Shown here piece after piece: positions 11,900 through 29,900 of a stretch of DNA of 64,000 nucleotides. Each line of letters opens with the position of its first letter. Positions within the stretch are counted from its first letter, which is position 1. Under the pieces are notes generated by a model. It did no database searches, was not told the origin of the DNA, and saw nothing but the letters and a program-made list of their open reading frames with translations. The position numbers and the translations under genes were made by a program. The DNA comes from Acidimicrobiia bacterium. GTDB lineage: Bacteria > Actinomycetota > Acidimicrobiia > Spongiisociales > ZC4RG35. The stretch covers positions 341,863-405,862 of the forward strand of contig OZ244034.1 of the NCBI GenBank assembly GCA_965215185.1, given 5' to 3'.

Positions 11900-11932
11900 G
11901 CAATTCAATCCCCTTCCCGCCGCTTGATCGGT

Positions 11933-11975
11933 GAACGGGCCCTGGGACTATCCCCGGGGCCCGTTTCCGCTTTAA
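11933..11975. terminator. GC-rich hairpin with a T-tract between convergent genes (putative bidirectional terminator)
   Basis: The inverted repeat 'gaacgggccctggg...ccccggggcccgttt' is followed by 'ccgcttt'. It lies between the 11444(+) and 12020(-) genes. Confidence 0.4.
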
Positions 11976-12019
11976 GGTCGCAGGAGCGGGAGCAAAAGTC
12001 CGGCTGATCTGGCCGTCCC

Positions 12020-12858: not shown

Positions 12859-12870
12859 CTGAGACCTACA

Positions 12871-12963
12871 CCCATCGGTTTCCCGTCGTGCCTCCTGAAC
12901 GAGATTGTTTCGATCAAAATGTGACCGGGCCGTCGCCTATCGGTTTCCCGTCGTGCCTCCTGG
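12871..12963. repeat. direct repeat pair (~25 bp, 'c(c/t)atcggtttcccgtcgtgcctcctg') separated by ~40 bp at the left edge of the accessory island
   Basis: Copies read directly at 12871-12897 and 12936-12963. Confidence 0.5.
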
Positions 12964-13144
12964 ATCTCACGCGCCGACGAAGGCAGCAGTGGAGTCCATT
13001 CTTGTGGTGTACGGGGGCCTGGTGGGGTTCAATGGGTTCGATCCTCAACGAAATCCCCTGTGACATGGTGCGGTAGCCAATCTAACTCCTCCCCAGACAA
13101 GATTTACCTTGGCCAGCCTCGACAACGTGAAGCTTCTCCTCCAA

Positions 13145-14128
13145 TCACTGGATATCGCCGGTGAGAGCCTGCCTGGGATTCGTTATAAGAATCGTAGAGA
13201 CAGTTTCATCAGAGACGCCTTGCTTACGCAACTGAGGAACGATTCTGGTCAGAAGATAATCATAACCATTACCGCCTCTAGCCCGCAGAGAGCTCCGAAA
13301 ACAGACATCTTGTGATAGCAGAATATGCCTAGTAAAACCTTTGTCGATCAAGGACACTACATACTCAAGAGCCCTGATATCATCAAACGAAGAAGCCGCG
13401 GTTCCAAAGTGATCAAAGGAGACGAAGGCACCTCGGCGTACCAACGATTCGTGATAGTCAATCACATCATTTGACGACATCCAACCGGCATCTGACACCG
13501 AATCGCAGTGACCGATGATGACGCGACACGGACTCACTCCTTCCTCTTCAAGGAGATCAAGTTGCACATGGCCCACCGGCCAGCGGGCGGCGTGCGTGCT
13601 TATGGTTACCCCGGTTCGACGGTGAGCGCGGGCAGCTGCCCTGAACACGCGTTCTTCATGAGCTGTCAGGAATGCGTCACAACCTATCTCACCAATGATT
13701 CCCGCACGTATTCCTGTACCGTCAATGCCGACCTCTATTTCGTCCACCATCCAGCGAGCGAGCTGATCTACGCTGTTCTGGTCAACCCATTCACTGTCCA
13801 GGTAGGGGTGCCTATAAAGCCCGGTTCCCACAACGATGTTCAAGCCCGTCGCTTCACTGACCTGCTGGACCTGCTGTGGTTGACGGCCCATCCCTCGGAG
13901 AGTGAGATCCACAAGGCTTTGACCCCCGGCACTCTTGAAGCGGCTTAACTCCTCCACAGCTAGAGCACCGTCATTCAGCCAACCATCACCACGATACTCA
14001 GAAATCAAAGTGCAGAACACGTGCTCATGCATCAATGTCACTCCAAGATCGTCTGGTGATATCTCACCGAGCACCGTCGTAATATGCTGCCTGCTATTCA
14101 TGGGTCTGGGGTTACAGCATGAAACCAC
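13145..14128 (-). CDS. phosphotriesterase-family (PTE/PHP, amidohydrolase) protein
   Basis: 327 aa. 'VTLMHEHVF' is the N-terminal metal-binding His pair of the PTE family, and 'IIGHCD' is the later His/Asp ligand region. Confidence 0.7.
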   Translation of the reverse strand: MVSCCNPRPMNSRQHITTVLGEISPDDLGVTLMHEHVFCTLISEYRGDGWLNDGALAVEELSRFKSAGGQSLVDLTLRGMGRQPQQVQQVSEATGLNIVVGTGLYRHPYLDSEWVDQNSVDQLARWMVDEIEVGIDGTGIRAGIIGEIGCDAFLTAHEERVFRAAARAHRRTGVTISTHAARWPVGHVQLDLLEEEGVSPCRVIIGHCDSVSDAGWMSSNDVIDYHESLVRRGAFVSFDHFGTAASSFDDIRALEYVVSLIDKGFTRHILLSQDVCFRSSLRARGGNGYDYLLTRIVPQLRKQGVSDETVSTILITNPRQALTGDIQ

Positions 14129-14233
14129 GGGGTTGAATCACCAGGCACGTGCTTCTCGCTGGATCCAATTTCATTAGGCCAGTCCAAGCTCATTTGCCAT
14201 TGTTGTATACCAAGCACCCAGAATGGTGTATTC

Positions 14234-14274
14234 GTGCTCCAAGGTGAACGCCCTGCGGGTTCACCTTGGAGCAC
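14234..14274. promoter_or_regulatory. perfect 16-bp inverted repeat with a 9-nt spacer, between the amidase 3' end and the PTE gene 5' end
   Basis: 'gtgctccaaggtgaac gccctgcgg gttcaccttggagcac'. It could be the amidase terminator hairpin and/or an operator for the PTE gene. Confidence 0.4.
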
Positions 14275-14342
14275 TGTATCGAGCAGCCTGTTTCTGTGAA
14301 TGGACCTGTCGCTCTGTTGAGATATCATGCCATCGACTTCGT

Positions 14343-15923
14343 TCATACGTCGGCACCAGAAGATCTATCATTAGCAGCCTTTTCTACCTCAAACGCAGCG
14401 TTAAACAACAGATCTTCATCGAAACGCCTACCGATGATTTGTAACCCGATAGGTAAGCCATTGTCACCCGTACCACACGGTACCGTTATTGCAGGATGTC
14501 CCGTCAAGTTCGCAGGACATGTATTGAGATTATTGCGGAACAGGCCACGTTGCTTCGCCTGTCCGACTTCCGACTCCTCCAGGGTAGGAAGCCGAACAGC
14601 CTTCATCGGTGTCGTAGGAGTAACAAGCACATCGTATTCCTTGAACGTATCGTCCAGTTGCTGTGACCAAAAGTGCCGAAGATTCTGGGCCTTCGAAAAG
14701 TAGGTACTGCAATACTCTTGCTGCAGATATTTAGCAAGAATTAGATGTACGATCAGGAGGGGCGATAGAAGACGGCCTGAAGCGCGTCGTGCCTTTCCAA
14801 ACAAGTTCTGCCAACCAGGATCACACATACCAGGCCGGGAATATCCTTCGAGGTCAGAATCGACCATCGCAGCAAGCGAATGAGTCATTATGGTCAGTAT
14901 CACCGATTCGCATTGCTTCCACCACGGAAGGGAGATCTCTTGCACCTCCGCACCTTGATCCCTCAGTCCCTCCACAGCATCTCGGACGCTCGAGTTGACG
15001 TCCGATTCCCCGTCTAGCCAATCCATCGATTCCTTTAGAACGCCAATCCGAAGATTTCCGACGCCCTTCTCCCCAAGGCCCTGACTGTATGCCTGAGATT
15101 GGTATGGAACCCGAACAGACACTGGGCTTCGGGGATCTTCACCAGCCAACACCTCAAGTGCTAAAGCAGCATCCTTCACAGTTGACGCTATGGGACAAAC
15201 ATGGTCAAGCGTGTGGTCCACATAAGCGATGCCGAAGCTTGGCACCAAGCCATGTGTCGCCTTGATCGACACGACACCGCACCAAGCGGCCGGAATACGG
15301 GCGCTACCCCCCTGGTCTACTCCAAGCGCGATGTCAACTTCCCCGGCCGCAACCGCTGCCGCGCTCCCGGACGAAGATCCTCCCGCGGAATACGCTGGAT
15401 CATGAGGATTCCTCGCTGGACCAAATTCGCTGGACTCTCCTCCCGCGCCGAAGCTGAAACTATCCATGTTCAGTTTGCCCACGATTGTCCCGCCCGCATC
15501 AAGAATCCTCTCAACGACAGTCGCGTCCATGGATGGCACATACCCGTCCATCAGCCGTGAACCGTTGGTCATCGGGACACCAGCGAGCTTAATGTTGTCT
15601 TTTAAACCAACTCGTTTCCCTAACAGCTTGCCCGATTCTGAGCCTCTCACTAAACAGCGCCGAATGTATACGTTGAACGGATCGCTCTCGTTATCGGACG
15701 GCTCGCCTATCTCACGTTCAGGATATCTGACTGGAACTGAAGGAATGTCTAGGTCATTAATTTGGTCGATTTGCGACAGTATGTTCCAGATCTGATCCAT
15801 ATAGGACTCGGCCTCGTTAGCGGACAAGCGAATATACTGAGAGGCCGCAAGTTCCTGTACCTCGGACAGCTCTGGACACCGCAGCCGCCCATGCAATCTA
15901 TCACGATGCTCCATCTGTGTCAT
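14343..15923 (-). CDS. amidase (amidase-signature family)
   Basis: 526 aa with the AS-family signature 'GGSSSGSAAAVAAGEVDIALGVDQGGSARIPAAWCGVVSIKATHGLV' (Ser-cisSer-Lys triad region). Confidence 0.8.
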   Translation of the reverse strand: MTQMEHRDRLHGRLRCPELSEVQELAASQYIRLSANEAESYMDQIWNILSQIDQINDLDIPSVPVRYPEREIGEPSDNESDPFNVYIRRCLVRGSESGKLLGKRVGLKDNIKLAGVPMTNGSRLMDGYVPSMDATVVERILDAGGTIVGKLNMDSFSFGAGGESSEFGPARNPHDPAYSAGGSSSGSAAAVAAGEVDIALGVDQGGSARIPAAWCGVVSIKATHGLVPSFGIAYVDHTLDHVCPIASTVKDAALALEVLAGEDPRSPVSVRVPYQSQAYSQGLGEKGVGNLRIGVLKESMDWLDGESDVNSSVRDAVEGLRDQGAEVQEISLPWWKQCESVILTIMTHSLAAMVDSDLEGYSRPGMCDPGWQNLFGKARRASGRLLSPLLIVHLILAKYLQQEYCSTYFSKAQNLRHFWSQQLDDTFKEYDVLVTPTTPMKAVRLPTLEESEVGQAKQRGLFRNNLNTCPANLTGHPAITVPCGTGDNGLPIGLQIIGRRFDEDLLFNAAFEVEKAANDRSSGADV

Positions 15924-16025
15924 CCGACTCCTTTACAGGCGAGCTCGATAGCTAGCCGTCTTTCCGATCTTATGCTATTCACTTGTGCAACGCTGGCATG
16001 CATTTCATTATCCTTACAGCACGAA

Positions 16026-16853
16026 TCATTCGCGGTTGTCTTGCAGAGTCTCTCCAGTCTCTATGAGACCGGTTCTTTTTGGCACGTTGACTACACTAGA
16101 AAGAAGAGCTTTTGTGTAATTGGATTGTGGATTAGATATGACGTCTCTTGTGGCTCCAGTTTCTAATATTGTCCCTCGTTGCATCACCGCTATCCGATCA
16201 CTTATGAAACTGACAACGCCTATGTCATGTGCAACAAACAAATAGGTCAAACCGAGCTCCTCTTGGAGATCCATAAGCAGATTCAAAACCTGTGCTTGGA
16301 TCGAGACATCTAGAGACGAAACGGGCTCATCCAGGAAAACAAACCGCGGCTCGATTACAAGGGCTCTAGCAATGCAGATTCTCTGGGCTTGCCCGCCGCT
16401 GAACTCATGAGGGTATCGGTCTGCGTCTGCGCTTTTGAGGCCAACTAGGTTCAAGACTTCGGCAACACGTTTCCGGCGATGTAGCCGGGAAAAGCCGAAG
16501 TTGATCAGTGGTAACTCGATTGACTGCCCAACGGTCTTGACGGGATTCAACGCCTCCAATGGATTCTGCGAAACCATCTGAATCTCTCTTCGGAGTGGCC
16601 TCAATGCCTTTTCAGAGACTCCCGTGATCGACTGGCCTCTGTATCTGATCTCGCCGGAGGTTGGTCTGACTAGTCCCATGATCATCAGTCCTAAGGTGGT
16701 CTTCCCGCCACCCGACTGCCCGACGAGACCGAACGTTTCGCCTCGCAGTATTTGAAGATTGGCGTTCTCGACTGCGACAAATGTGCGGCCTTTGTACCCT
16801 TGGAACTCCTTCGATACGTCAATTACCTGAAGGAGAAACGAGTGCTCACTCAT
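16026..16853 (-). CDS. peptide/nickel-type ABC transporter ATP-binding protein (DppF/OppF-like)
   Basis: Walker A 'GQSGGGKTT', signature 'FSGGQAQRICIARAL', Walker B 'VFLDEPVSSLD'. Confidence 0.85.
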   Translation of the reverse strand: MSEHSFLLQVIDVSKEFQGYKGRTFVAVENANLQILRGETFGLVGQSGGGKTTLGLMIMGLVRPTSGEIRYRGQSITGVSEKALRPLRREIQMVSQNPLEALNPVKTVGQSIELPLINFGFSRLHRRKRVAEVLNLVGLKSADADRYPHEFSGGQAQRICIARALVIEPRFVFLDEPVSSLDVSIQAQVLNLLMDLQEELGLTYLFVAHDIGVVSFISDRIAVMQRGTILETGATRDVISNPQSNYTKALLSSVVNVPKRTGLIETGETLQDNRE

Positions 16854-17902
16854 GTCGGTGAACCCGTTTCAAAGAGCCAACACTTCACTAGTGTGTCATC
16901 GGCTAGTCTAAATTCTGGAGGCGAGGATTGAAAACATCTCTCCATGGCATGTGGGCATCTCGGAGCGAATCTGCAACCTCGAGGGAGATTCTGAGGATCG
17001 GGTAGGCTTCCCTGAATTTGAGGGAGCCGCTTTCCCTTAGTTTCTAGGTCAGGAACGGAATCTCTAAGTCCGATTGTGTATGGGTGTTTCGGAGAGGTGA
17101 GAATCTCGCCAGTTGATGCCTGTTCCACTCGCTGGCCCATGTACATCACGACCACTCGATCAGATACCTGAGCTACGACACCGAGATCATGGCTTATTAG
17201 AAGAACCGACATTCCCGTTTCACGCTGTACCTGATCAATGAGCTCGAGTATCTCGACTTGAGTGAGAGAATCAAGCATCGTCGTTGGCTCGTCAGCTATC
17301 AATAGTTGCGGCTCACCTATCAATGCAAGCGCGAGCATGATGCGTTGATTGATACCTCCGCTTACCTGAAAAGGGCGCAAACTAACAATCCGCTCCGGGT
17401 CCTCAAGATCAAGGTACGATAGTAGTTCAAGGCTCAACTCCCGACCCTCGTCTTTAGTCACTGCTCGGTGCTTCCTAGCTGTCTCGATGAGCTGATCTCC
17501 AAGGCGAATTACCGGATTTAATGCGGCGTAAGGATTTTGAAAGATCATCGCGATCTGTTTGCCTCGAATCTCTTGCATCTCTTTATTGCTCTTTTTCATC
17601 AGGTCATGTCCTTTGAACATCAGCCGACCGTCGACTATTCGACCCTGATGCTGCGGAAGGAGCCTAAGAATGGACAATGCGGTTACGCTCTTGCCTGATC
17701 CTGACTCCCCGACAACAGCAACCACTTCGCCGCGCTCAACCTCCAAACTCATCCCGTCAACCGCCTTCAAGACACCATTTGGTAAGAAGAAGTGCGTGTG
17801 AAGATCGTCGACCTTGAGAAGGGCCCCGCCCCCATTGTCTTCGAGCATTGATGACCTGCTCAATACGACAGAGTCCGTTGTTTCGCTTATCCGGTTGTCC
17901 AC
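16850..17902 (-). CDS. peptide/nickel-type ABC transporter ATP-binding protein (DppD/OppD-like)
   Basis: Walker A 'GESGSGKSV', signature 'VSGGINQRIMLALAL', Walker B 'LIADEPTTMLD', and a C-terminal oligopeptide-ABC extension with 'CRFAPRCP' cysteines. There is a 4-bp overlap with the downstream ATPase gene. Confidence 0.85.
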   Translation of the reverse strand: MDNRISETTDSVVLSRSSMLEDNGGGALLKVDDLHTHFFLPNGVLKAVDGMSLEVERGEVVAVVGESGSGKSVTALSILRLLPQHQGRIVDGRLMFKGHDLMKKSNKEMQEIRGKQIAMIFQNPYAALNPVIRLGDQLIETARKHRAVTKDEGRELSLELLSYLDLEDPERIVSLRPFQVSGGINQRIMLALALIGEPQLLIADEPTTMLDSLTQVEILELIDQVQRETGMSVLLISHDLGVVAQVSDRVVVMYMGQRVEQASTGEILTSPKHPYTIGLRDSVPDLETKGKRLPQIQGSLPDPQNLPRGCRFAPRCPHAMERCFQSSPPEFRLADDTLVKCWLFETGSPT

Positions 17903-18834
17903 GTCCTCGTCCTATGTCTCGGATCGAGAGCGTCCCTGAGGCCGTCTCCTACAACGTTGAAAGCGAGTGCTACGACAATGATCAAGAATCCTGGAACGGT
18001 TGCGATATGGGGCAGTTCCTGCAGAACCACTCGTCCGCCAGCGGTCATGATTCCCCAGTCGGGAGTCGGAGGTTGAACACCAACCCCAAGAAAGCTGAGT
18101 CCAGCCGCCATGACGATCATCCCTCCCACTCCCGTCGATGCGTAAATGATGACAGGAGGAATCACATTGGGAAGCACCTCCCGCAGTAGCTTCCTCCTTT
18201 GAGGGGTGCCAGCTACCTGCGCTGCTCTCAAGTAGTCACTCCCGCGAACTGAAACCGCCTCGACAAACACCACGCGGGTCAAATATGGGATGGATACCAC
18301 GCCGATTGCAAGCATCAGGTTCATCATGCCTGGTCTCAAGATTGTCGCTACTGCTATGGCCAGTAGCACAGGAGGGAACGCGAACATCACGTCCAGGATC
18401 CTCATCGCCAGACCACCAATCCAGCCTGCCGAAAAAGCTGCCATCAGCCCTATCGCGAGCGAGGCTGCTAACGCGCCGAGAACAGGTAGGACTGCTACTG
18501 GAATTGAAACCCGTCCCCCCCAGAGAAGCCTTGTGAACACATCCCGTGCCTGTCCGTCGGTTCCTAAGAAATGGCCCGGGGTTCCCAAAGGGGCATAACG
18601 CCCGACTTCTCTATGAGCTTCATTTGGGCCGTAGGGGGTTAGGAGATCGGCCCCGAACGAAGCAGCCACAACAACAACAATGAGGATTAGGCCGGTAAGT
18701 GCAAGCCGGTCACGAGCGAACGTCCGGATAATGAGTCTGAACTGTCCGGTTTGCGTTGTCGTGAGCGGATCAGTCTGCCGGGTCCCTTTGTCTCGAGCTA
18801 CCGCTCCTTCCAGCACATCTCCCTCTTTTCTCAT
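17887..18834 (-). CDS. ABC transporter permease (DppC/OppC-like)
   Basis: 315 aa, about 6 TM helices, with a BPD_transp_1 region 'YLRAAQVAGTPQRRKLLREVLPNV'. Confidence 0.8.
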   Translation of the reverse strand: MRKEGDVLEGAVARDKGTRQTDPLTTTQTGQFRLIIRTFARDRLALTGLILIVVVVAASFGADLLTPYGPNEAHREVGRYAPLGTPGHFLGTDGQARDVFTRLLWGGRVSIPVAVLPVLGALAASLAIGLMAAFSAGWIGGLAMRILDVMFAFPPVLLAIAVATILRPGMMNLMLAIGVVSIPYLTRVVFVEAVSVRGSDYLRAAQVAGTPQRRKLLREVLPNVIPPVIIYASTGVGGMIVMAAGLSFLGVGVQPPTPDWGIMTAGGRVVLQELPHIATVPGFLIIVVALAFNVVGDGLRDALDPRHRTRTWTTG

Positions 18835-18880
18835 TGCTCTTGGCCGAATTCAGGCTCAACGGGTTCTGAAACTGATAGCT

Positions 18881-19849
18881 TCACGTTCCAGCACCGACCG
18901 AAGCCATCGTTCGCGGGTCGACTAGTCCTTGAATAACGTCGCTGACGAGACTGATCGCGACGAACAAGAGACCGGTGAACAATACGACAGTCTGGATGAC
19001 GGGTATGTCTCGCGCCGCAATCGCCTGAAAGACGAGAAAGCCCACACCCGGCCATGCAAAGACGACCTCAACAAACAAAGTGGCCGTGAATATAAACCCA
19101 AGCTGTAAACCGCTCACGTTTGCGATGGGGGCCACGATGTTTCTAACACCGTGACGAAACACGATAGAGGCTTCGGTTATACCTCTTGCTCTCGCTGCCT
19201 GAATGTACGGTTGATCCAATGCATGAGCTAGCTCGGACCTCGTCAAACGGAAGATCACTGCCATCGGAATTAGGGCAGCCGTCACTGATGGAAGAGCGGC
19301 GTGATGGAGCAAGTCCACTACGTCTGACTCGGCTCCCACCGTGCCAATCCCTGACACAGGGAAGATTCCCAGCCTTACACTGAAGATCCACACAAGAACC
19401 AAGCCGAGCCAGTACACCGGGGCACTCGCCAGTACGACAGCGAATGTAGTCATGATTCTGTCAACCGGAGAAAAGCGCTTCACTGCTGCCAGGATCCCAC
19501 CAAAGAAGCCGAGAACGAACGCTATGGCAAAACTCAAGGCAACCAAGATCGCGCTGTTTACAACTGCTTGTCCGAAGATCTCTGAGACGGGTGTCTGGTA
19601 TCTAACGGACGTACCAAAATCACCTTGAACGAAGAGACCGAGCCATTTCACATACTGTACCGGCCAAGGCTGGTCCCATCCCAGACTCCTTAGCAGCGCT
19701 TCACGAGCCTCTGGTCCAGCGAAGGGACCAAGAAGGAAGGAACTTGGATCCCCTGGCACAAGCTTCATAAGAAGGAACCCAACAACCGAGATACCGACCA
19801 GCATCGGCAAGATAGCAAGCGCCCGCCTGCCTATCATTGGTACTATCAC
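18881..19849 (-). CDS. ABC transporter permease (DppB/OppB-like)
   Basis: 322 aa with 'YIQAARARGITEASIVFRHGVRN' and a typical OppB TM layout. Confidence 0.8.
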   Translation of the reverse strand: MIVPMIGRRALAILPMLVGISVVGFLLMKLVPGDPSSFLLGPFAGPEAREALLRSLGWDQPWPVQYVKWLGLFVQGDFGTSVRYQTPVSEIFGQAVVNSAILVALSFAIAFVLGFFGGILAAVKRFSPVDRIMTTFAVVLASAPVYWLGLVLVWIFSVRLGIFPVSGIGTVGAESDVVDLLHHAALPSVTAALIPMAVIFRLTRSELAHALDQPYIQAARARGITEASIVFRHGVRNIVAPIANVSGLQLGFIFTATLFVEVVFAWPGVGFLVFQAIAARDIPVIQTVVLFTGLLFVAISLVSDVIQGLVDPRTMASVGAGT

Positions 19850-20034
19850 GCTGATAACTTAATCGTTTCCTCAAGACTGCCACAGAACGTGGAGATCTGG
19901 TTTAGCTGAGAGGACCCCGGTTCATCAAGTGCCCGCTGGGGCTGAACTGGAACCACCTGCACCCTCTTTCATCGGACGATTGCCACCATGCTCCGGTCTC
20001 CTGAGCAACTGTGGATGACCGCTCTCGCATGGGA

Positions 20035-20066
20035 TGGGGCCGAGACCCCATCCCATGCGATTACGA
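20035..20066. other. 13-bp-arm GC-rich stem-loop in the SBP-permease intergenic region of the peptide ABC operon
   Basis: 'gcatgggatgggg ccgaga ccccatcccatgc'. The position fits an intra-operon mRNA-stabilising or attenuating hairpin downstream of the SBP gene. Confidence 0.35.
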
Positions 20067-20085
20067 GACAGACTTGAGTCAACTA

Positions 20086-21813
20086 TCAACGGTCAAGCCA
20101 CACAATGGAGTAGTCCACAACCCAGTCCCCGGTTCGAATGAAGCCATTGACATCCGCCGCCATCGCGAGAGGGAAAGTATCTGACACGATGGGGGCATGG
20201 AAGGCCAGTTCGTGACCTCTACGAGCGGCTGCTTCGATGAACTCACTGGCTTCTTCTTGACTTGCAGCTTCATTGGCAGCTATCAAGAGCGAGTCATATT
20301 CTCCATCAATCAGCCCTCCCGAGTTGATACCTGCAGACGGTGACGTGGACTCATACAGCCAGTAGTCGGAGTTGTCCCCCCACGATATCTGGTTCATATC
20401 GACGTCATCCGGCATACCTGTGTACCACCGGCCAACGTACGTATTCCATTCGTAAGTACGAAGCTCCAGATCTATTCCGATTTCGGCCAGGTCTCGCTGA
20501 ATCCATTCAGCCATCTGTACAGGCAAGATCTGCCCGGATCCCGATGTCGACGTCTCAAACACCGCGTCAAACCCACCCTCATAGCCTGCTTCGGCAAGGA
20601 GCTCGCGCGCTCGCTCTGGGTCGTACTCATACCCCGCCCAATCTGGTACAGGGTTGAATGTCGCCGACGTAGACGAGCAGAAGCAGATAGCCGCCTCAAC
20701 TGTACCGACAAGCAGTTCCGCCGCCATGCCATCTCTGTCGATCGCCAGATTGACGGCTTGTCGAACTCTCGGATCGTCAAAGGGTGGCCGCCTGTGCTGG
20801 AATTCTATATACCAAAGATGCGGAGTCGGGCCCGATGCAATCTTGAAACCGTCGTCTTCAAGCTCAAGTATCTGATCCGGAGGCACGACACGGATCATGT
20901 CGACTTCGCCGGCCCTCAGGGCGTTGACGCGACCAGACTCATCTTCAATCGGTCGGAATATCAGTTCATCCACGTAGGGATGGGGAGTCCTCCAATAGTC
21001 CCGGTTTGCCTCCAGAGTCAAATGCTGTCCTCTTACCCACTCGACGAACTTGAAGGGACCGGTGCCAATGGGATGATCCGCGACCTCTTCGCCATACTCA
21101 ATAACAGCTGCGGGGCTAATCATCCATGGATGACCCAGACCTGTTGTGGTGGCGAGCTTCTCAATGAAGAACCCAAAGGGTGCTGACAGGACGAACTGAA
21201 CCGTGAATTCATCAACGACTTCAACAGCCTCGAGATTCTGGAATACTGTCGCGGCAAGCCCTGACAGTCCTTCTCCGATGTAATGATCGAAGCTTGGATC
21301 CCACACCCTGCGCACATTGAACTCGACAGCTCCCGCATCAAAGGGCGTCCCATCATGGAAGGTCACACCCTCGCGCAGTGAGAATGTGTGGATCAAGCCA
21401 TCCGGACTCGATTCCCACTCGGTGGCTAGCCGTGGCACGATCTCGGGCGGGCTGCCATCGTTTGGAACGGTGTAATCGGCAGTAATGAGCTTCTCAAAGA
21501 TCTGCTCGTTGACTTCATGCGTCTGTCCTCCCGAACTCCGATGTGGATCGAGAGTGCTGATCGTTGCTTCCAGCGCTACTATGAGAGTCCCTCCCTGCTG
21601 AGCCTCTGAATCGGCGCTTGTCTCAGCGGGCGCCGTCGTCTCAGGGGGCGCCGTCGTCTCAGGGGGCGCCGTCGTCTCAGGGGGTGCCGTCGTCTCAGCG
21701 GGCGCCGTCGTCTCAGCAGCAGCATCTGCCGCTTCGTCCCCGTCGTCGCCGCAGGCCGCAGCCAGCAACGCCAAGACAGCCATAAGGGCAATGGCTACTT
21801 TGAATTTCTTCAT
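20086..21813 (-). CDS. ABC transporter substrate-binding lipoprotein, family 5 (DppA/OppA-like), with a low-complexity ETTAPP linker
   Basis: 575 aa with a signal peptide and lipobox 'LLAAC', then '(A/P)ETTAP' x5, then an SBP_bac_5-type body. Confidence 0.85.
   Translation of the reverse strand: MKKFKVAIALMAVLALLAAACGDDGDEAADAAAETTAPAETTAPPETTAPPETTAPPETTAPAETSADSEAQQGGTLIVALEATISTLDPHRSSGGQTHEVNEQIFEKLITADYTVPNDGSPPEIVPRLATEWESSPDGLIHTFSLREGVTFHDGTPFDAGAVEFNVRRVWDPSFDHYIGEGLSGLAATVFQNLEAVEVVDEFTVQFVLSAPFGFFIEKLATTTGLGHPWMISPAAVIEYGEEVADHPIGTGPFKFVEWVRGQHLTLEANRDYWRTPHPYVDELIFRPIEDESGRVNALRAGEVDMIRVVPPDQILELEDDGFKIASGPTPHLWYIEFQHRRPPFDDPRVRQAVNLAIDRDGMAAELLVGTVEAAICFCSSTSATFNPVPDWAGYEYDPERARELLAEAGYEGGFDAVFETSTSGSGQILPVQMAEWIQRDLAEIGIDLELRTYEWNTYVGRWYTGMPDDVDMNQISWGDNSDYWLYESTSPSAGINSGGLIDGEYDSLLIAANEAASQEEASEFIEAAARRGHELAFHAPIVSDTFPLAMAADVNGFIRTGDWVVDYSIVWLDR
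21613..21716. repeat. tandem 18-bp repeat (about 5 units of 'gcgccgtcgtctcagggg') encoding the ETTAPP linker
   Basis: Read directly in the sequence. Confidence 0.6.
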
Positions 21814-21924
21814 TGCTTATTCCTTCCTGCCGGGTGCTCGTCGGGCCAACGGCACTCGACTAAAAAAAGTGACCTGGGTCGGCAGATCAGCCGACCTCCA
21901 GTTCTAAATATATAGCTGGGTCTA

Positions 21925-22330
21925 TCAATTCTTCCCTCGCAGGGGCATTATTTCTTGGGCACATCTCAAAAATTGAGTGTTGTTGGGGTTGGTGAATCCG
22001 TGAGCGACGCGTCGTGGGACCTGGAGGAGGTTGTTGATCCCTTCGATGGGTCCGTTCGATGCTCGTCTGCTGGTGTGGTAGGCCAAGATCTCTTCTCCCC
22101 ACGCGATGATCGTGTCCACGATGTCGCGGTATTCGCGGATCTGGCCTGTGGCGTAGAGATCAGCGAACCGTCCCAGAGCCTCGTTGGCCTGATCGAGGTC
22201 GCCGGCTTCGTAGAGTTGGTAGAGTTCCTGGAGCGCGTCCCACGCGGTACGGAGACGTGGATGAGCGTCGACCAGCCGGTCGAGGTGCGCCTGGTGGGCG
22301 TCGCTGAGATGATCCAGTACACTACATCAG
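21925..22330 (-). mobile_element. ISL3-family transposase 3'-end fragment (C-terminal ~130 codons only), left copy
   Basis: Encodes '...DTIIAWGEEILAYHTSRRASNGPIEGINNLLQV..RRVAHGFTNPNN', the conserved ISL3 C-terminal motif. About 355 bp are near-identical in inverse orientation to 26657-26992. Confidence 0.6.
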
Positions 22331-22368
22331 TTACAATCGTCTGGAGAGTCAAAGTGATTGATCTTGAT

Positions 22369-24099
22369 ATGAGGCTAGACCCGATTCAGTTTGAGGTGAT
22401 TCGAAATGCTCTGCTTGAGATCACCGAAGAAATGAGCGCCACCGTTAGGCGTAGCGCGTATTCCACGAACATCAAGACGAGAGCCGATTTCTCATGTGCC
22501 CTGTATGACGAGCACCTTCGCGTCGTCGCTCAGTCGTTCGCCCAGCCGACCCACCTTGGATCGGCCGTCGAAGTGGTGCCCAACGCCATCCGCGAATACG
22601 GTGCTGACAACATTGGACCTGGCGATAGCATCGTCCTGAATCACCCTTACATCGGTGGAGGACACCTAAACGATGTGACCCTCATCTCTCCGGTGTGGTA
22701 CAAGAATCGTCGACTCGGATATGTAGCCAACATCGCCCATCACGTTGACGTCGGCGGGGGAGCTCCATCCAGTATCGGAGCATTTACGGAGGTATTCCAG
22801 GAGGGGGTGATCATCCCGCCTCTGAAATTGGTGCGTAGCGGAGAGGTCGTTGACGAGATCTTCCAACTCATTCTGTCTCAGATACGCTCGAAGCGGGAGT
22901 TCGCGGGCGACTTTCGTGCCCAGATCGCCTCAAATCAAGCTGGAATCCATAGGCTAACGGCATTACTAGACCGTTTCGGCCCTGAAGTAGTCGAGACTGG
23001 GATCGAACAGATTCTGTCCTACACGGAACAGCGTATTCGAGTCGAGGTGGGAGCTCTTCCGCGTGGCGTTTTCACGGCAGAGGGCTACGTGGATACTGAC
23101 GGGTACACGGCTGATCCTGTTCGACTTGCTGTCAAGGTTGTCGTCGATGACGACGGTGTGCTATTTGATTTCGATGGCTCGGATCGTCAGCGGAAAGCGC
23201 CAGTGAACGCTACGTTCGCGATGACGTTCGCGACGTGTGCGTACGTCCTCAAGGCATTGACCGATCCCGATGTGCCAGTGAATGCGGGATTCTACGGCGC
23301 AGTACGCATAAACGCACCCGCAGGGTCCGTCGTGAATTGCGTGTATCCTGCTCCCGTAGTGGGGGGATGGGAAACTCAGATGAGACTCACAGACATCATT
23401 TTCAAGGCGTTGTCCCCCGCACTGCCTGAGATGATTCCCGCAGGTACAGAGGGGATGATCTGCCACGCTGGTTTTGGCGGAGAGGACCCTCGTACTGGCG
23501 AGTATTACTGCTTCCTTGAGACGCTCGCTGGCGGTTATGGGGGTAGGGCTAAGAGTGACGGTCCCGACGCAGTCCAATGCCATGGGAAGAACACTGAGAA
23601 CGCTCCAATCGAGGAGACCGAATCGAGTTACCCCGTCAGGATCGTTCGTTATGAGTTGGTAGAGAACTCAGAAGGTGCGGGAAGACACAGGGGGGGACTT
23701 GGGCTACGACGTGACTATCTTTTTCCCGATCATGAAGTGTCCTTCACAGTCCTCGCTGACCGGGATCGCTGGGGCCCACACGGGCTGTTCGGAGGACTTC
23801 CGGGAACTAAGGCTGAGTACGTACTCGTCTCGAAAGGCGAGACCAGCAAGGTCGGCGCTAAGTCAACCTTGCAGTTGAAGCCAGGGGACCTCGTCAGTTA
23901 CCGAACCTGTGGCGGTGGGGGCTTTGGCCCGCCAAGTGAGAGGGATCCGGTCAGTGTTCTTGCCGACGTAAGAGATGGAAAAGTCAGTGCCGAGAGAGCA
24001 CGAGAGGTCTACCGCGTGATGATTGATCCCAAGGATCTGGTCATAGACGAAGAGCAAACCAGTGTTCTTAGGGGTTCCAATAGCGTGGATAAGCAGTGA
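22369..24099 (+). CDS. hyuB: hydantoinase B / oxoprolinase / caprolactamase beta-type subunit (HyuB family)
   Basis: 'MRLDPIQFEVIRNALLEITEEMSATVRRSAYSTNIKTRADFSCALYD' is the canonical HyuB N-terminus. The ORF track extends to 21955 only because the antisense of the IS fragment is open. Confidence 0.85.
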   Translation: MRLDPIQFEVIRNALLEITEEMSATVRRSAYSTNIKTRADFSCALYDEHLRVVAQSFAQPTHLGSAVEVVPNAIREYGADNIGPGDSIVLNHPYIGGGHLNDVTLISPVWYKNRRLGYVANIAHHVDVGGGAPSSIGAFTEVFQEGVIIPPLKLVRSGEVVDEIFQLILSQIRSKREFAGDFRAQIASNQAGIHRLTALLDRFGPEVVETGIEQILSYTEQRIRVEVGALPRGVFTAEGYVDTDGYTADPVRLAVKVVVDDDGVLFDFDGSDRQRKAPVNATFAMTFATCAYVLKALTDPDVPVNAGFYGAVRINAPAGSVVNCVYPAPVVGGWETQMRLTDIIFKALSPALPEMIPAGTEGMICHAGFGGEDPRTGEYYCFLETLAGGYGGRAKSDGPDAVQCHGKNTENAPIEETESSYPVRIVRYELVENSEGAGRHRGGLGLRRDYLFPDHEVSFTVLADRDRWGPHGLFGGLPGTKAEYVLVSKGETSKVGAKSTLQLKPGDLVSYRTCGGGGFGPPSERDPVSVLADVRDGKVSAERAREVYRVMIDPKDLVIDEEQTSVLRGSNSVDKQ

Positions 24100-24121
24100 A
24101 GACGCGCCCTTCACGACCTGA

Positions 24122-26239
24122 TTGAATGGGAGCAAGGCGAGCATGACAAGCCGGATTGGAATTGACATTGGTGGCACGTTCACAGATGCAATTGTGATTA
24201 ACGAAGCAACTGGCGAGATTTTCATCGACAAGGTCACTTCCACTCCTCGTGATCCATCGATTGGTTTTCTACAGGCGACCAATCGGATATTGGAACGCAA
24301 TGAGCTGGACCCAAGCTCTATAGCATATCTAGTTCATGGTACGACTGTTGCTACCAATGCAATTATTGAGAATAGTCTGGCGAAATCTGCGTTTATCACG
24401 ACGGATGGATTCAGGGATATGCTTGAGATTGGACGGCAGAATCGCCCCGTACTGTATGACCTTGGGTTTGAGAAACTTCGACCGCTGGTACCGCGCTATT
24501 TGTGTTTTGAGATACGAGAGCGGCTCGATGCCTCGGGCAATGTTGTCGTTCCAATTCATGTGGAAGATGTCAAATCAGTGGCCCGAAAGATAAAGGAGGA
24601 GGAAGTTGAGTCAATCGCTGTGTGTCTTCTGCATGCACATATCAATCCAGTTCATGAGGTAACCGTTGGCGAAATACTACGGTCCATGCTTCCAGAGACG
24701 GCCGTTTCGCTTTCGAGCGAGGTGGCACCAGAATTTCGGGAGTATTTCCGCGCCAGCACCACAACGATCAATGCTGGAATTCGCCCAATCGTTTCGCGAT
24801 ATCTTGAGAGTATCGAGAGTCGCCTTCGAGCTGAAAGCATGACAGGTGAGCTTCTTGTGATGCAAAGCAATGGGGGACTGCAGACGTTCGAGGTAGCGGC
24901 CGAGAAGCCAGTATTCATGGTGGAGTCGGGGCCGGCCGCCGGAGTCATGGCGGCGACCTACCTCGGAGAATCGCTCGGGTTCAGCAACATGATCTCGCTG
25001 GATATGGGCGGGACCACGGCAAAAGTCGGCCTGATTCTGGATGGCGTACCGAACGTGACAAAGGATTACGAGGTGGGCGCAACCGCCCGACCAGGAATGG
25101 GGAGTGGTCGCGGTTCGGGCTATCCGATTCGTACTCCTGTCATTGACCTGGTTGAGATCGGAGCCGGAGGTGGATCAATCGCTTGGGTGGATTCAGGCGG
25201 TGCACTAAGGGTGGGGCCAAGAAGTGCTGGCGCTGATCCGGGCCCAGCGTGCTACGGCTGGGGCGGCCTGGAGCCGACGGTGACTGATGCCAACCTCGTC
25301 CTCGGACGGCTGAACCCCGAGTACTTCCTCGGCGGCGAGATAAAGCTCGACGTCGAGAGGGCTTCGGAGGCGATCGAAGGATTGGCATCCCAGTTAGGCA
25401 TGGATCTAATCGATGCAGCTTACGGAATCTTGGAGATTGCCAATGCCGCAATGGTGAATGCCCTGAGGTTGATCTCCATACAACGTGGATATGACCCGCG
25501 CGAATTCGCTCTTGTCGCCTTCGGTGGAGCCGGTCCTTTGCACAGTGGAAGAATCGCCATCGAACTCGGATTCTCTCACACCATCGTGCCGCTTAGCCCT
25601 GGCATCTTCTCGGCATTGGGACTTCTCGTGACTGATCTGAAGCACGACTTCTCGAGAACGGTTCTGCAGAACGTCGAAAGACTTGATCTGACGATCATCG
25701 AAGGGCTTTTTCAAGAGCTGGAAAAAGAGGGCCGTGACCTACTTGGGCGTGAAGGCGTCAAGGAGGAGGATGTTCAAGTTCGACGTTACGCTGAAATGCG
25801 CTACGTCGGTCAGAGCTATGAGCTCTCCCTCGACCTTCCAGATGGCGTTCTCACTCATAGCGACTTGGATCAGATCCTCGACCAGTTCGCCAAAGAGCAT
25901 GATCGGGTCTACGGGTTCAGCGTCCCAGGTGAACCCGTAGAGATCGTCAACATACGTTTGAGTACCCTCGGCGACATTCGCAAGCCTAGACTGAGAGAAA
26001 TCGGGAACAGTGGAACTGGGTTGGAATCTGCACACAAGGGAGCCCGATCTGTCTATTTCGACGAGAGCGGCGGATACATTGAGTGCCCCATATTCGACCG
26101 TTACAAGCTTGCTCAGGGCATTTCACTGATCGGTCCAGCCATAATCGAAGAACCGGATTCTACGACGGTTGTGCATCCCGGCTACAGCGTGAACATCGAT
26201 CAATATGGAAACCTGTTGTTGACCTCGGATGACGGATAG
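24122..26239 (+). CDS. hyuA: hydantoinase A / N-methylhydantoinase A-type ATP-dependent subunit (HyuA family)
   Basis: The N-terminal 'IGIDIGGTFTDAIV' (ASKHA fold) and the internal 'ISLDMGGTTAKVGLI' second sugar-kinase-like motif are both present. 705 aa. Confidence 0.85.
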   Translation: MNGSKASMTSRIGIDIGGTFTDAIVINEATGEIFIDKVTSTPRDPSIGFLQATNRILERNELDPSSIAYLVHGTTVATNAIIENSLAKSAFITTDGFRDMLEIGRQNRPVLYDLGFEKLRPLVPRYLCFEIRERLDASGNVVVPIHVEDVKSVARKIKEEEVESIAVCLLHAHINPVHEVTVGEILRSMLPETAVSLSSEVAPEFREYFRASTTTINAGIRPIVSRYLESIESRLRAESMTGELLVMQSNGGLQTFEVAAEKPVFMVESGPAAGVMAATYLGESLGFSNMISLDMGGTTAKVGLILDGVPNVTKDYEVGATARPGMGSGRGSGYPIRTPVIDLVEIGAGGGSIAWVDSGGALRVGPRSAGADPGPACYGWGGLEPTVTDANLVLGRLNPEYFLGGEIKLDVERASEAIEGLASQLGMDLIDAAYGILEIANAAMVNALRLISIQRGYDPREFALVAFGGAGPLHSGRIAIELGFSHTIVPLSPGIFSALGLLVTDLKHDFSRTVLQNVERLDLTIIEGLFQELEKEGRDLLGREGVKEEDVQVRRYAEMRYVGQSYELSLDLPDGVLTHSDLDQILDQFAKEHDRVYGFSVPGEPVEIVNIRLSTLGDIRKPRLREIGNSGTGLESAHKGARSVYFDESGGYIECPIFDRYKLAQGISLIGPAIIEEPDSTTVVHPGYSVNIDQYGNLLLTSDDG

Positions 26240-26439
26240 CCGGAGAGGCTCGTCACGCCGAACAGAGAGCTGACTGCTTCGCCAAGGTTGCTCTAACGCA
26301 AATCACGCGCACGCCGGAAACCAGTTGGCCCTGCGCGGAAATGTGGGGTTGGGTGGGTTGAAATCCTTGGATTGGGGGTGAGGCCTCGCTGGAATCGGTA
26401 AAGTACCAACTCGCCGATTCGAGGAGGCCTCGATGTCTG

Positions 26440-27050
26440 ATGTTATGTCTGTTCGTCTGCACTTGTCGGGTTCGCGTTAGGAGCGATCGCGCAGTATCTA
26501 CCGGACGGTCTTCACGTACTCGATCGTTTTCACGTGGCGCGCTGGTTCACCGAAGGCCTCACCCTGGTACGACGCGAGATACAACGCCGCCCCCTGATCA
26601 GCGTCCGCCGACCTACGAACCGGATCTGTTCCGGGCCCGCTTCACGCTCCTGCGGCGCGCGGATCATCTCAGCGACGCCCACCAGGCGCACCTCGACCGG
26701 CTGGTCGACGCTCATCCACGTCTCCGTACCGCGTGGGACGCGCTCCAGGAACTCTACCAACTCTACGAAGCCGGCGACCTCGATCAGGCCAACGAGGCTC
26801 TGGGACGGTTCGCTGATCTCTACGCCACAGGCCAGATCCGCGAATACCGCGACATCGTGGACACGATCATCGCGTGGGGAGAAGAGATCTTGGCCTACCA
26901 CACCAGCAGACGAGCATCGAACGGACCCATCGAAGGGATCAACAACCTCCTCCAAGTCCTATGACGCGTCGCTCACGGGTTCACCAACCCCAACAACTAC
27001 GCAGCCCGAGCGATCCTCGTAACATGACCTCAACACCGAGCACAGCATGC
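26440..27050 (+). mobile_element. ISL3-family transposase 3' fragment (longer remnant), right copy, inverted relative to 21925-22330
   Basis: Encodes '...LYATGQIREYRDIVDTIIAWGEEILAYHTSRRASNGPIEGINNLLQVL' and then continues in another frame. The N-terminal two-thirds of the transposase are absent. Confidence 0.6.
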
Positions 27051-27351
27051 CAAAACCCACGATTTCGCGCAGCCTCATCCGTTCCACTACTGGCTAGAGA
27101 CCCTCTGAGTCATGATGGCTGGCAGGACTGAGTGGTATCACGACACTCACATAGAATGTAGCTCAGACCGGCTACGCACACCCGCATCCCAAGCAGAGGA
27201 GAAACAGCAACACCGTGTCGACGAATCAGACCGGGCGAGCCTACGAGGAAGTGAAGGATCCGTTGCGGCTGGCAGGCGGAATATCGATCAGCATTCCAAG
27301 GCTGAGAACGTGGATTCGGGATCGGAGTAGAAACCTGTTGCTGTCCGGTGC

Positions 27352-27690
27352 CTAATCAGTAGTTATCTTAACTCCGAGGAGTGGAGCGTGCTGCTGACAA
27401 CCGTACACGTCCCGATCCCTGGGGCTACCAGAAACCGCTGGTCGTACGATTGTGATCTTGAGGCCTCGAGCTGAATCGTGCCATGCAAGGTTGATTACAT
27501 CGCTCTTGTCGATTCCGTAGCACCGCGAAACCAAAGAATCGGTAATGATGCCCGACATCTTCACTTGACTAAACGCCTCGGCGCTATCAAAAAATACATC
27601 AAAAGTCAGCAAATACGGCCCAGCATTCTTGCTTCTGAGGATGCTTGCGACCTCGCCCAGGGTCGTGTTCATATCAGCTATAGCTCCCAA
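27352..27690 (-). CDS. DUF4387-domain protein (partner of AtuA-like DUF1446 proteins)
   Basis: 112 aa, translationally overlapping the upstream DUF1446 gene. This pairing is a known conserved two-gene module. Confidence 0.55.
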   Translation of the reverse strand: MGAIADMNTTLGEVASILRSKNAGPYLLTFDVFFDSAEAFSQVKMSGIITDSLVSRCYGIDKSDVINLAWHDSARGLKITIVRPAVSGSPRDRDVYGCQQHAPLLGVKITTD

Positions 27691-29038
27691 CAGCTACTTC
27701 AAAACATTCATCTGGCGAGTCGAGAGTCATCAAGTGATGCACGCTGAACTCATAGACCGGCCCGCACGATAGGGTTCCCGGCGCAAGAGGGTATGCCAAG
27801 TTAGCCGCAGTTGCCTTGATACCAGGATACTTGAAGTGATCGATCGATGACCGGACGAAGGCAACGATGGTATCTGCCAGCGTTTGCGACTCAGCGACAA
27901 CCCTGATTAGGAGGCCTACTTCGTGAGCGGGGATTGGGGTGGGTTCTAGATGTCCCATCACTCCATCTCGTCCATACACTACAAAATCGAGATCAAAGTC
28001 GTCACTAAACCGCTGGGCGGTAGCCTCGTGGACGGCGTCGACGATCAAATCAATATTGGATATGAAATACGGATCTCGTGCGCCAGCAATAGTGATCGAA
28101 CGATATCCACGCTGGGTGGCACCCTCGATGAGCACTTCATACCGATCACTCTCGCACCATTCACTCCCGGAGATGTTGACCCACCCATCCTGGGCTTGCT
28201 CGAATTCACTGTTTCCCATCCAGACGTGCCCACCGGGCAAGTACAATCTGGCTGGGTCTGATTCCTCATAAAAGCTTTGGGCGGCGACAGAACGGGGTGA
28301 GCAGACGATGGAGTGTTTGGGCGAGCCGACCGTGAAATGGTCTTCCCTGATTATTCCCGTCATGGACTCGGCGGCACCATGGTCTGCCTCAGAACACATG
28401 GCACCACATTCGAGAATCTGACCCATGTGCCAAGCTAGGCCCTTGGGATAGCCTTCCCTAATCGCCAAAGCAGCAAAAATTGCGGCATCGCAGCTTCGGC
28501 CAGCGATCACGAGATCTGGTTCGAGATCGAGTGCCTCCACTATTTGTTCGACACCCATTAGGCCGACTATGTGAGTCGTTTCTTCGATCGTTTGGACGGA
28601 AAGTTGCTCCTCTGGCCCCAGACTTCTTATCTTGCCGGCACGGAGTTTTCGCTTGATGTAATCCTTGTGCAGCTCTGAACGAACGGTTGCGATGCGGAGG
28701 CTCCATCCACACTCACGAGCAATTTCGTGGGCGATGTCAAGCATCCATTCGATCCCAAAGTCAGACCCGGACGTTCCAGCGGAGCCGATAACCACGGGAA
28801 TGCGCCGTGAGCGGCTGGCAGTCAGAATCCTGCCTAGGTCGTCGGCCGTTGTGGATCGTGCTGCCTCCACAATGCCCCCACCCAGATTGTGTGGACCAGA
28901 GTCTGTTGAGCCTGCATCAATTCCTATGACGTGCGGGTTCAGAGCTAAGTTCATTTCGAAGCTGTCATCAGGGAATCCGAAACCCAGCATGCCCGTAGGG
29001 ACTAGAGTCCGTAGCTCTCGACTTGCCCTGTGGACCAT
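27674..29038 (-). CDS. acyclic-terpene-utilisation AtuA-like protein (DUF1446)
   Basis: 454 aa, about the right length. It has an N-terminal 'LGFGFP' region and is partnered with DUF4387 immediately downstream. Confidence 0.6.
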   Translation of the reverse strand: MVHRASRELRTLVPTGMLGFGFPDDSFEMNLALNPHVIGIDAGSTDSGPHNLGGGIVEAARSTTADDLGRILTASRSRRIPVVIGSAGTSGSDFGIEWMLDIAHEIARECGWSLRIATVRSELHKDYIKRKLRAGKIRSLGPEEQLSVQTIEETTHIVGLMGVEQIVEALDLEPDLVIAGRSCDAAIFAALAIREGYPKGLAWHMGQILECGAMCSEADHGAAESMTGIIREDHFTVGSPKHSIVCSPRSVAAQSFYEESDPARLYLPGGHVWMGNSEFEQAQDGWVNISGSEWCESDRYEVLIEGATQRGYRSITIAGARDPYFISNIDLIVDAVHEATAQRFSDDFDLDFVVYGRDGVMGHLEPTPIPAHEVGLLIRVVAESQTLADTIVAFVRSSIDHFKYPGIKATAANLAYPLAPGTLSCGPVYEFSVHHLMTLDSPDECFEVAVGSYS

Positions 29039-29096
29039 TTCTCTCCTCTGCCGATCCGCACTCCGTCTTTGGTGTGCCAGTTACTATAGCGGCTCT

Positions 29097-29853: not shown

Positions 29854-29900
29854 TTTTTGGGGTCGGGGTGACCAACAGGGCAGCGGCTTGTTTGGCGGGT

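Follow-up and report, generated by a model that had tools for sequence, protein, structure and literature searches.

How did a sensor kinase gene come to break off at the very place where the base composition of the chromosome changes? This question is raised by a 64,000-nucleotide stretch of an Acidimicrobiia bacterium genome (contig OZ244034.1; hereafter the window), in which a block of transport and hydrolase genes of low G+C content lies next to a kinase remnant. The original prediction, made from the letters of the sequence, had placed an accessory island of about 16 kb at 13100–29040, replacing the 5' part of a two-component system. Comparison with related loci (given as L numbers below) confirmed that the island is real and corrected its borders: the foreign segment that replaces native DNA spans 12860–33349 (20.5 kb), and its cargo core, an 11-gene module with genes on both strands, occupies 12869–29090 (16.2 kb), as delimited by blastn and tblastn against copies of 94–99% identity in five other Acidimicrobiia species. 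Judged from these sequence comparisons, the segment is very probably a horizontally acquired, insertion sequence (IS)-associated catabolic island that took the place of 1.5 kb in a two-component locus of the OmpR/MprAB type.

The evidence that carries this reading comes from the same site in its empty state. A search with the reconstructed kinase remnant retrieved an intact 455-aa kinase (P0001) that is 97% identical to it. Two empty loci, L004 (on a 975-kb contig) and L005, have flanks of 97.7–98.9% nucleotide identity to the window and share the gene order BCCT, OpuAC, ADSL, PhyH, AlkZ, purA, hydrolase, a gene of unknown function (383–391 aa), response regulator (227 aa), kinase (455 aa), hyp151, permease, solute-binding protein (SBP), and NucS. 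L004 1–9012 corresponds to window 42450–33397 (97.7%) and L004 10529–20946 to window 12859–2442 (98.3%); the 1.5 kb between these two blocks is swapped in the window for 20.5 kb, with the junctions located at 12859/12860 and 33349/33350 by fine alignment. The DNA lost from the window comprises the entire regulator gene, the first 528 nt of the kinase gene, and 89 codons at the end of the neighbouring gene, and no response regulator was found anywhere in the 64-kb window.

On the left, a histidine-kinase pseudogene without its 5' 528 nt remains (12020–12859, minus strand). Its homology to L004 stops at 12859, three-frame translation revealed a frameshift near 12700–12725, and Pfam detected only the HAMP tail, HisKA, and HATPase_c domains. 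In L001, the remnant is broken further, into open reading frames (ORFs) of 129 aa and 90 aa. On the right, the conserved gene of unknown function (33350–34274, minus strand) keeps residues 1–294 of 383. Here, a 685-aa chimeric ORF (32217–34274, minus strand) reads in frame from the truncated gene via the 5' non-coding region of an IS110 element (element C, described below) into the transposase. The original prediction had correctly read the left edge as a kinase deprived of its sensor/transmembrane region and its regulator, and the replacement of the 5' part of a two-component system was confirmed against the empty site, but the lost DNA also includes the end of the neighbouring gene.

The intact regulator–kinase pair joins the flanks in two further species as well (L006/L007, kinase 80% identical; L073, 78%), so that the filled state is the derived one. 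Altogether, contiguous flanks with an intact kinase and regulator and without the island were found at L004, L005, L006, L007, and L073. The left junction is reproduced in L001, which stems from a different sample and is 99.0% identical over 2442–21973; L002 and L003, which are independent assemblies, likewise contain the right junction and the island end. Since the filled allele L002 and the empty allele L004 were both found in sample ERZ25068853, the site is polymorphic within one population.

The composition of the island differs from that of the flanks in all measures applied, as had been proposed for a low-GC block of about 16 kb. The G+C content was 54.4% at 13100–29040 compared to 61.3% (1–13100) and 60.2% (29040–64000). 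A sliding profile displayed a low-G+C plateau at about 12.9–29.3 kb, with values for 1-kb windows of 0.495–0.59 within the island and 0.56–0.66 elsewhere. The G+C content at third codon positions (GC3) ranged from 0.51 to 0.595 in all 11 cargo genes and from 0.63 to 0.77 in all 31 flank genes, with zero overlap (Mann-Whitney p=6e-7). Similarly, the tetranucleotide distance, calculated for 4-kb tiles relative to the flank mean, amounted to 24–31 for island tiles and at most 15.6 for flank tiles, i.e., the island values were about twice the flank maximum. Neither GC nor codon usage is thus uniform across the window. The contrast estimated by eye (45–55% versus 62–66%) was right in direction and position, but it was overstated given the measured 54.4% versus 60–61%.

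Where else does the module occur? A scan with HyuB, a hydantoinase-type subunit encoded in the island, covered one genome per species and gave matches of 96–99% amino-acid identity in five Acidimicrobiia metagenome-assembled genomes (MAGs; L008, L009, L010, L011, and L067), the next best match being 70%. All 11 genes were found in these five by blastn and tblastn at 94–99% nucleotide identity, in flanks that are unrelated to the window and mostly unrelated to each other. The flanking genes encode an ISL3 transposase, a luciferase-like monooxygenase, and a 2-hydroxyacid dehydrogenase in L008, a NIF3 protein in L009, a Band-7 protein and CoxMLS-like proteins in L067, and a PNP_UDP_1 protein and an ABC permease in L010/L011. 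The island therefore has at least five chromosomal contexts, the window's own site included. The genome that carries the island at L010 additionally has an intact regulator–kinase pair at the syntenic site (L073); compared with the window, its syntenic core is 77.3% identical (13.9 kb) and its island 94.8% (13.1 kb). Between L001 and the window, divergence is 0.23% in the island and 1.41% in the flanks. For the cargo genes compared with L010 and L067, ratios of nonsynonymous to synonymous divergence (dN/dS) of 0.10–0.39 were obtained at dS values of 0.04–0.24; they are therefore recent arrivals under continuing purifying selection.

The G+C content of the island also lies below that of the flanks in each of the other hosts, and the original donor would therefore lie outside these genomes. 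A donor in another phylum was considered and rejected: Poribacteria, Latescibacterota, Anaerolineales, and others share hyuBA alone (52–70%) and none of the nine remaining genes. The identities of AtuA, another cargo protein, form a single cluster of at least 90% (59 variants, many on contigs of 2.6–3.1 Mb), followed by 64%, 61%, 54%, and about 45%. One variant from this cluster, the 398-aa P0254 on a contig of 2,611,499 bp (equal in length to the contig of L006), suggests a second genome in which an intact two-component site (L006) is combined with the island elsewhere. In the unrelated 62%-GC locus L074 (ERZ25039495 contig_100254, 1700–18800), all 11 gene types recur at 35–66% amino-acid identity, accompanied by a GntR regulator. 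Because they co-occur in this distant locus too, the 11 genes are treated here as one functional unit. The L074 cluster is partly decayed; its permease and phosphotriesterase (PTE) genes are fragmented, and a DDE_Tnp_1 transposase gene is inserted. Based on the co-retrieved records of Poribacteria and Latescibacterota, the carrier MAGs are probably sponge-associated.

What moved the module? In six of seven contexts, the cargo ends on the right at one and the same nucleotide (L067 stops 18 nt sooner), and in the window, L002, L008, L009, L010, and L011 the left terminal inverted repeat of an ISL3 element is located there. Of this repeat, 24–26 nt remain in L010/L011 and the first 9 nt (GGCTCTTCG; 29091–29099, plus strand) in the window. 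The same element flanks the island in L008, where it measures 1436 bp (16555–17990), is bounded by 25-nt terminal repeats of 84% complementarity, and encodes a transposase of 466 aa. To the left of the L008 island lies the 3' end of another ISL3 copy with the same orientation and 93.6% identity; the fetched locus stops short of its outer end. With ISL3 copies in direct orientation on both sides, L008 thus carries an ISL3–island–ISL3 composite, of which the window retains the 9 nt of one terminal repeat. Most likely, the module moves as a composite transposon bracketed by ISL3. The sequence GATGCTCCTATGGTTGTCAAATCG was rejected as a candidate for the ISL3 terminal repeat; every IS110 fragment has this sequence as its 3' terminus, and the true ISL3 repeat is GGCTCTTCGGAAATGAGTGGGGAGT. 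The right side had been predicted to be bounded by IS remnants, and this border indeed holds what is left of the ISL3 repeat, along with a nest of IS110 elements.

A course of events can be proposed. We infer the order of insertions and deletions, because the window has no complete composite, target duplication, or junction at an IS target. The module would have arrived as an ISL3 composite transposon, or at least beside an ISL3, and both ISL3 copies would then have been lost except for 9 nt of one end. An IS110 element would have entered that ISL3 end, and more IS110 elements would have nested into one another. Deletions outward from the insertion would have taken the regulator gene along with the start of the kinase gene and the end of the neighbouring one. 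A second ISL3 would have inverted hyuBA inside the module, breaking a co-directional operon. Carriers would gain a pathway and lose a signalling system.

Several observations weigh against this account. No complete composite transposon and no target-site duplication were seen in the window, and neither of its junctions is a recognisable IS target. About 155–210 nt of the left end, present in L008, L009, and L067, are missing in the window. The island in L067 ends without any IS sequence, which makes recombination after uptake possible. No lower-GC donor was found, the best matches outside these Acidimicrobiia being 70% for HyuB and 64% for AtuA. The precedence of the colinear gene order discussed below rests on parsimony, and the distant L074 cluster is non-colinear. 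Finally, none of the cargo proteins reached an NCBIfam equivalog cut-off, so that these models assign neither a substrate nor a ligand.

Among the alternatives, the one that survives best has recombination after DNA uptake, whether homologous or illegitimate, as the main route of spread and the IS elements as later hitch-hikers. The IS-free ends in L067 and the left ends that vary between loci would agree with it, as would an IS110 and ISL3 content that varies among 99%-identical strains. However, six of seven contexts have the ISL3 left terminal repeat joined to an identical position of the island, ISL3 copies lie on either side in L008, and the flanks are unrelated, so that there is no homology to recombine. 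We consider this route unlikely.

An assembly chimera at IS repeats would fit the right side, which consists of repeated IS110 sequence that differs among relatives. The left junction, however, has no repeat and is reproduced from another sample in L001, the junctions of the unknown gene with IS110 element C and of the island with the ISL3 end recur in L002 and L003, and the same island lies within multi-megabase contigs of five other genomes. An artefact of metagenome assembly is thus very improbable.

The direct repeat pair at the left edge, described beforehand as 25 bp long, might point to an integrative (conjugative or mobilisable) or phage-borne element that integrated site-specifically. 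Such a pair is present in the non-coding left end of the island (12871–12897 and 12936–12962, plus strand), with a length of 27 nt and 26 of 27 positions identical. Both copies lie on one side at a distance of 65 nt, and the second, a 24-nt insertion, is seen in the window alone and is missing in the other four island copies compared (L001, L008, L009, and L067). An attachment site or target duplication was thereby ruled out, and the pair is a strain-specific, one-sided duplication instead of an integration signature. Furthermore, Pfam detected no integrase, relaxase, or phage gene in the segment, the window has no tRNA gene, and a plasmid origin found no megablast match; an integrative element can hardly be the explanation. 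Rfam families were likewise absent from 11–36 kb. The left junction itself varies between 99%-identical strains: L001 has a perfect hairpin (GACGGGAAAC-N10-GTTTCCCGTC) in the region 11400–11440, and its counterpart at window 12860–12875 reads GAC-CTACACCCATCG-GTTTCCCGTC.

An ancestral island, with the empty alleles arising from precise loss, has almost nothing left to recommend it: the presence/absence polymorphism alone would fit gain or loss, but the empty alleles hold 1.5 kb that a deletion could not recreate, the intact arrangement occurs in two more distant species, and the kinase remnant is decaying in both the window and L001. That the stretch is native, its composition reflecting gene function or expression level, is next to impossible; codon usage can be unusual in genes for transport and catabolism and the GC gap is only about 6–7 points, but the stretch is missing in close relatives, has 94–99% identical copies at other loci in species with 77–80% core identity, and is low in G+C relative to the flanks in each other host.

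The IS-associated catabolic island that we favour is of a familiar kind, namely ordinary horizontal gene transfer, and it is unusually completely documented. Catabolic composite transposons and IS-bracketed islands are known from proteobacteria, such as the IS-flanked blocks for chlorobenzene, atrazine, and haloacid degradation. The island resembles them as a self-contained block for uptake and degradation with border IS (ISL3 on both sides in L008), atypical composition, a patchy distribution, and near-identical copies across species and loci. In contrast to them, the hosts are uncultured Acidimicrobiia, the window copy lacks bracketing IS and a target duplication, a 1.5-kb deletion in a two-component locus accompanies the insertion, and no plasmid carrier was found.

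Which genes does the island carry? Pfam bore out every gene call (PTE, amidase, two ABC ATPases, two permeases, SBP_bac_5, Hydantoinase_B, Hydantoinase_A, DUF4387, AtuA, an ISL3 fragment, and three IS110 transposases), and each cargo identity named in the original prediction was supported. A PTE-family hydrolase of the amidohydrolase fold (13145–14128, minus strand; PF02126, 1.9e-78; NCBIfam score under every equivalog cut-off) is followed by an amidase-signature amidase (14343–15923, minus strand; PF01425, 3.9e-98; NCBIfam NF005565 with 502 bits versus a cut-off of 545). The PTE and purA products, translated from the start codons selected here, gave no hit in exact-sequence look-ups. Next, the components of a complete Dpp/Opp-type importer are encoded together: two ATPases with oligo_HPY tails (16026–16853 and 16850–17902, minus strand; ABC_tran and oligo_HPY), two permeases (17887–18834 and 18881–19849, minus strand; BPD_transp_1, OppC_N, and BPD_transp_1_N), and the family-5 binding protein SBP_bac_5 (20086–21813, minus strand; PF00496, 2.1e-93). 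The Thr/Pro/Ala-rich N-terminal linker of the latter, which follows the signal peptide, is encoded by an 18-nt tandem repeat in six copies (21602–21734). As the alignments with L001, L009, and L010 break there, the repeat number varies between strains.

The genes hyuB (22369–24099, plus strand; PF02538, 6e-172) and hyuA (24122–26239, plus strand; Hydant_A_N, Hydantoinase_A with 4.5e-103, and Hydant_A_C) encode subunits B and A of an ATP-dependent enzyme of the hydantoinase/oxoprolinase type. The ATG of hyuB was set by comparison with L010 and lies at 22369, not at 21955; the first 138 codons of the listed 714-aa ORF are ISL3 debris and filler. The last two cargo genes are adjacent with a 17-nt overlap and encode a DUF4387 protein (27352–27690, minus strand; PF14330; PDB 9ERQ_B, 2.2e-22, residues 9–108), a homologue of citramalate lyase subunit B (CmlB), and an AtuA/DUF1446 protein (27674–29038, minus strand; PF07287; PDB 9ERQ_A, 1.3e-95, residues 7–438), a homologue of citramalate lyase subunit A (CmlA).

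The hyuBA pair is bracketed by a 337-nt inverted repeat, both arms of which are internal to an ISL3 transposase gene. The left arm (21979–22315, minus strand) is 99% complementary to the right arm (26661–26997), which lies within an ISL3 transposase fragment at 26440–27040 (plus strand; PF01610, 2.2e-20). In L010/L011, the genes for AtuA, DUF4387, HyuB, HyuA, SBP, two permeases, two ATPases, and amidase are colinear and co-directional, with the DUF4387 stop codon 4 nt ahead of the hyuB ATG; the PTE gene lies mostly beyond the end of both fetched loci. In the window, L008, L009, and L067, hyuBA is inverted in place, and L067 retains just 70 nt of one arm. The simplest reading of these arrangements is that the colinear 11-gene operon came first and that hyuBA was later inverted via ISL3, of which both copies then decayed. 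The inversion could have proceeded by intramolecular transposition or by recombination between two inverted ISL3 copies. Two other ideas were discarded. The internal ISL3 fragment is not the element flanking the island in L008, as the two share 42% amino-acid identity over 38 residues. Neither is hyuBA with its inverted arms a functional composite transposon; the arms lack IS ends, and L010, L011, and L067 show in-place inversion.

What could the module do? The best solved relative of HyuA is the N-methylhydantoinase PDB 7HK5 (5e-154), followed by 6YRA. HyuAB share with ATP-dependent hydantoinases, 5-oxoprolinases, and caprolactamases (7HK5, 6YRA) the two-subunit organisation and the full set of Hydant_A_N, Hydantoinase_A, Hydant_A_C, and Hydantoinase_B domains, but they differ from these systems in the gene order B then A and in scores below the caprolactamase and acetophenone carboxylase cut-offs. 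The nearest NCBIfam model was caprolactamase (598 and 271 bits versus a cut-off of 1000), and acetophenone carboxylase reached 319 and 94 bits versus a cut-off of 1500; an assignment as caprolactamase CapAB or acetophenone carboxylase was rejected, as these scores are far under the equivalog cut-offs. AtuA and DUF4387 correspond to the A and B chains of 9ERQ, to which the depositors gave the names citramalate lyase subunits A and B. The homology of this pair is to the two-subunit citramalate lyase and not to any terpene enzyme with an established role. The two-subunit Cml of Raoultella planticola converts citramalate directly to pyruvate and acetate (bioRxiv 10.64898/2026.01.16.699985), and an earlier study described DUF1446 genes as neighbours of genes of the methylaspartate pathway (PMC4682846). 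As for CmlAB (PDB 9ERQ/9EVF), an AtuA-family and a DUF4387 gene are adjacent here and both chains are matched. Unlike in the methylaspartate pathway (PMC4682846), however, the context here is a hydantoinase, amidase, and ABC transporter cluster.

From these homologies a tentative outline of four steps can be drawn. A small cyclic amide or a peptide-like compound would enter through the ABC system, HyuAB would then spend ATP on opening a hydantoin or lactam ring, amidase and PTE-fold hydrolase would cut the resulting amide, carbamoyl, or ester bonds, and the CmlAB-like lyase would split a hydroxy-dicarboxylate by C–C cleavage into small acids. The scavenging of amides or peptides, suggested earlier for this cargo, is plausible though unproven, and the AtuA/DUF4387 pair adds homology to the citramalate lyase. 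A wider idea is speculative and rather doubtful: the module might be an undescribed catabolic route for a host-derived cyclic amide that sweeps gene-specifically across co-resident Acidimicrobiia symbionts and that cost this lineage a two-component system. PADLOC gave no matches that would indicate an anti-phage role of the unknown, AtuA, and DUF4387 proteins, and nothing useful was found in the literature on DUF4387 and on hydantoinases of sponge Acidimicrobiia.

The remainder of the segment is the nest of IS110 elements, with three transposase genes at 29.9–33.1 kb. Next to the 9-nt ISL3 remnant, four stacked IS110 3'-end fragments (29099–29828, minus strand) each start, on the plus strand, with GATGCTYCTATG..CAAATCG; the oldest, of 23 nt, adjoins the ISL3 terminal repeat, and 29460–29828 is the 3' part of element B. 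Element A (29829–31216, minus strand) is of full length with a frameshifted transposase gene and lies inside B at codon 292/293. Pfam detected only Transposase_20 in its 334-aa ORF, and the N-terminal part was found in another frame by tblastn to IS110 transposases. The 5' part of B (31217–32229, minus strand) is 85.7% identical to residues 1–293 of an intact 405-aa transposase in L002. Residues 1–293 of that copy match 32093–31212 and residues 292–405 match 29829–29479; the uninterrupted B-like copies in L002 represent the empty target of element A. This target, ...GCCAACAACGC|CCTGTGGCGG, codes for the conserved GNRQANNALW motif of the IS110 transposase. The 5' part of element C (32230–33349, minus strand) is cut at most 3 nt from the homologous position, and the 5' end of B follows. 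In both B and C, the DEDD_Tnp_IS110 and Transposase_20 domains occur in a single ORF. The outer end of C is the right junction of the replacement; the sequence at which it meets the truncated gene does not resemble the IS110 target, and this junction is probably the end-point of a deletion. The arrangement of the nest varies between 99%-identical strains (window 29099–33349 versus L002 4191–9902).

How were the targets in this nest chosen? IS4321 and IS5075 are target-specific IS110/IS1111 elements that insert in the terminal repeats of the Tn21 family. The elements described here resemble target-specific IS110/IS1111 elements in their DEDD plus Transposase_20 transposases, in a long 5' non-coding region predicted as two stem-loop domains, and in their insertion in defined sites of other elements, namely the terminal repeat of ISL3 and the stretch encoding GNRQANNALW. 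They differ in that one of the targets lies in a transposase gene that belongs to a related IS110, and in guide–target matches at chance level. The 5' non-coding regions of A, C, and one L002 copy were each predicted by folding to form two long stem-loop domains, and the A and C types are set apart by a single block, namely the first domain's internal loop. This folding resembles that of a bridge RNA; guide–target matches for element A are 7 nt only, with about two expected by chance, and no Rfam match to the 5' non-coding region was obtained. Target-specific IS110/IS1111 elements are guided by bridge or seeker RNA (PMC11208160, PMC11187229). The IS110 elements in the window might be RNA-guided into a conserved motif of rival IS110 transposase genes.

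Further variable spots were noted outside the foreign segment. Synteny with L001, L004, and L005, the relatives whose loci extend this far, ends at 2442, which is a second variable junction. At 716–2125, the window encodes a pyridoxal phosphate (PLP)-dependent enzyme of Cys/Met metabolism; a branched-chain-type ABC ATPase is found there in L001, L004, and L005, and in L073 by gene order. A gene of the PhyH (phytanoyl-CoA dioxygenase) family (37997–38984, plus strand) is split over two frames at about 38143, as opposed to an intact 329-aa gene in L004/L005, and is either a pseudogene or a sequencing error. At 43664–45793 (plus strand), adjoining the BCCT/OpuAC genes, a 709-aa fusion of an OpuAC glycine-betaine-binding domain, SBP_bac_3, and the ligand-gated ion channel Lig_chan/Ion_trans_2, i.e., a GluR0-like channel, is encoded, which is conserved in L006.

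Taken as a whole, this locus documents cleanly a recent interspecies transfer in an uncultured, probably host-associated actinobacterial clade, with filled and empty alleles in one sample, both junctions resolved to the nucleotide, and the pre-inversion operon kept in sister species. It offers the Opp-type importer, HyuAB, the amidase, the PTE-fold hydrolase, and the CmlAB-like lyase to biochemistry as one functional unit, and it places the newly solved AtuA/DUF4387 lyase family outside the context of glutamate fermentation. The IS110 nest provides natural target-site data for bridge-RNA recombinases. For this strain, the gain of a pathway came at the cost of a two-component system.

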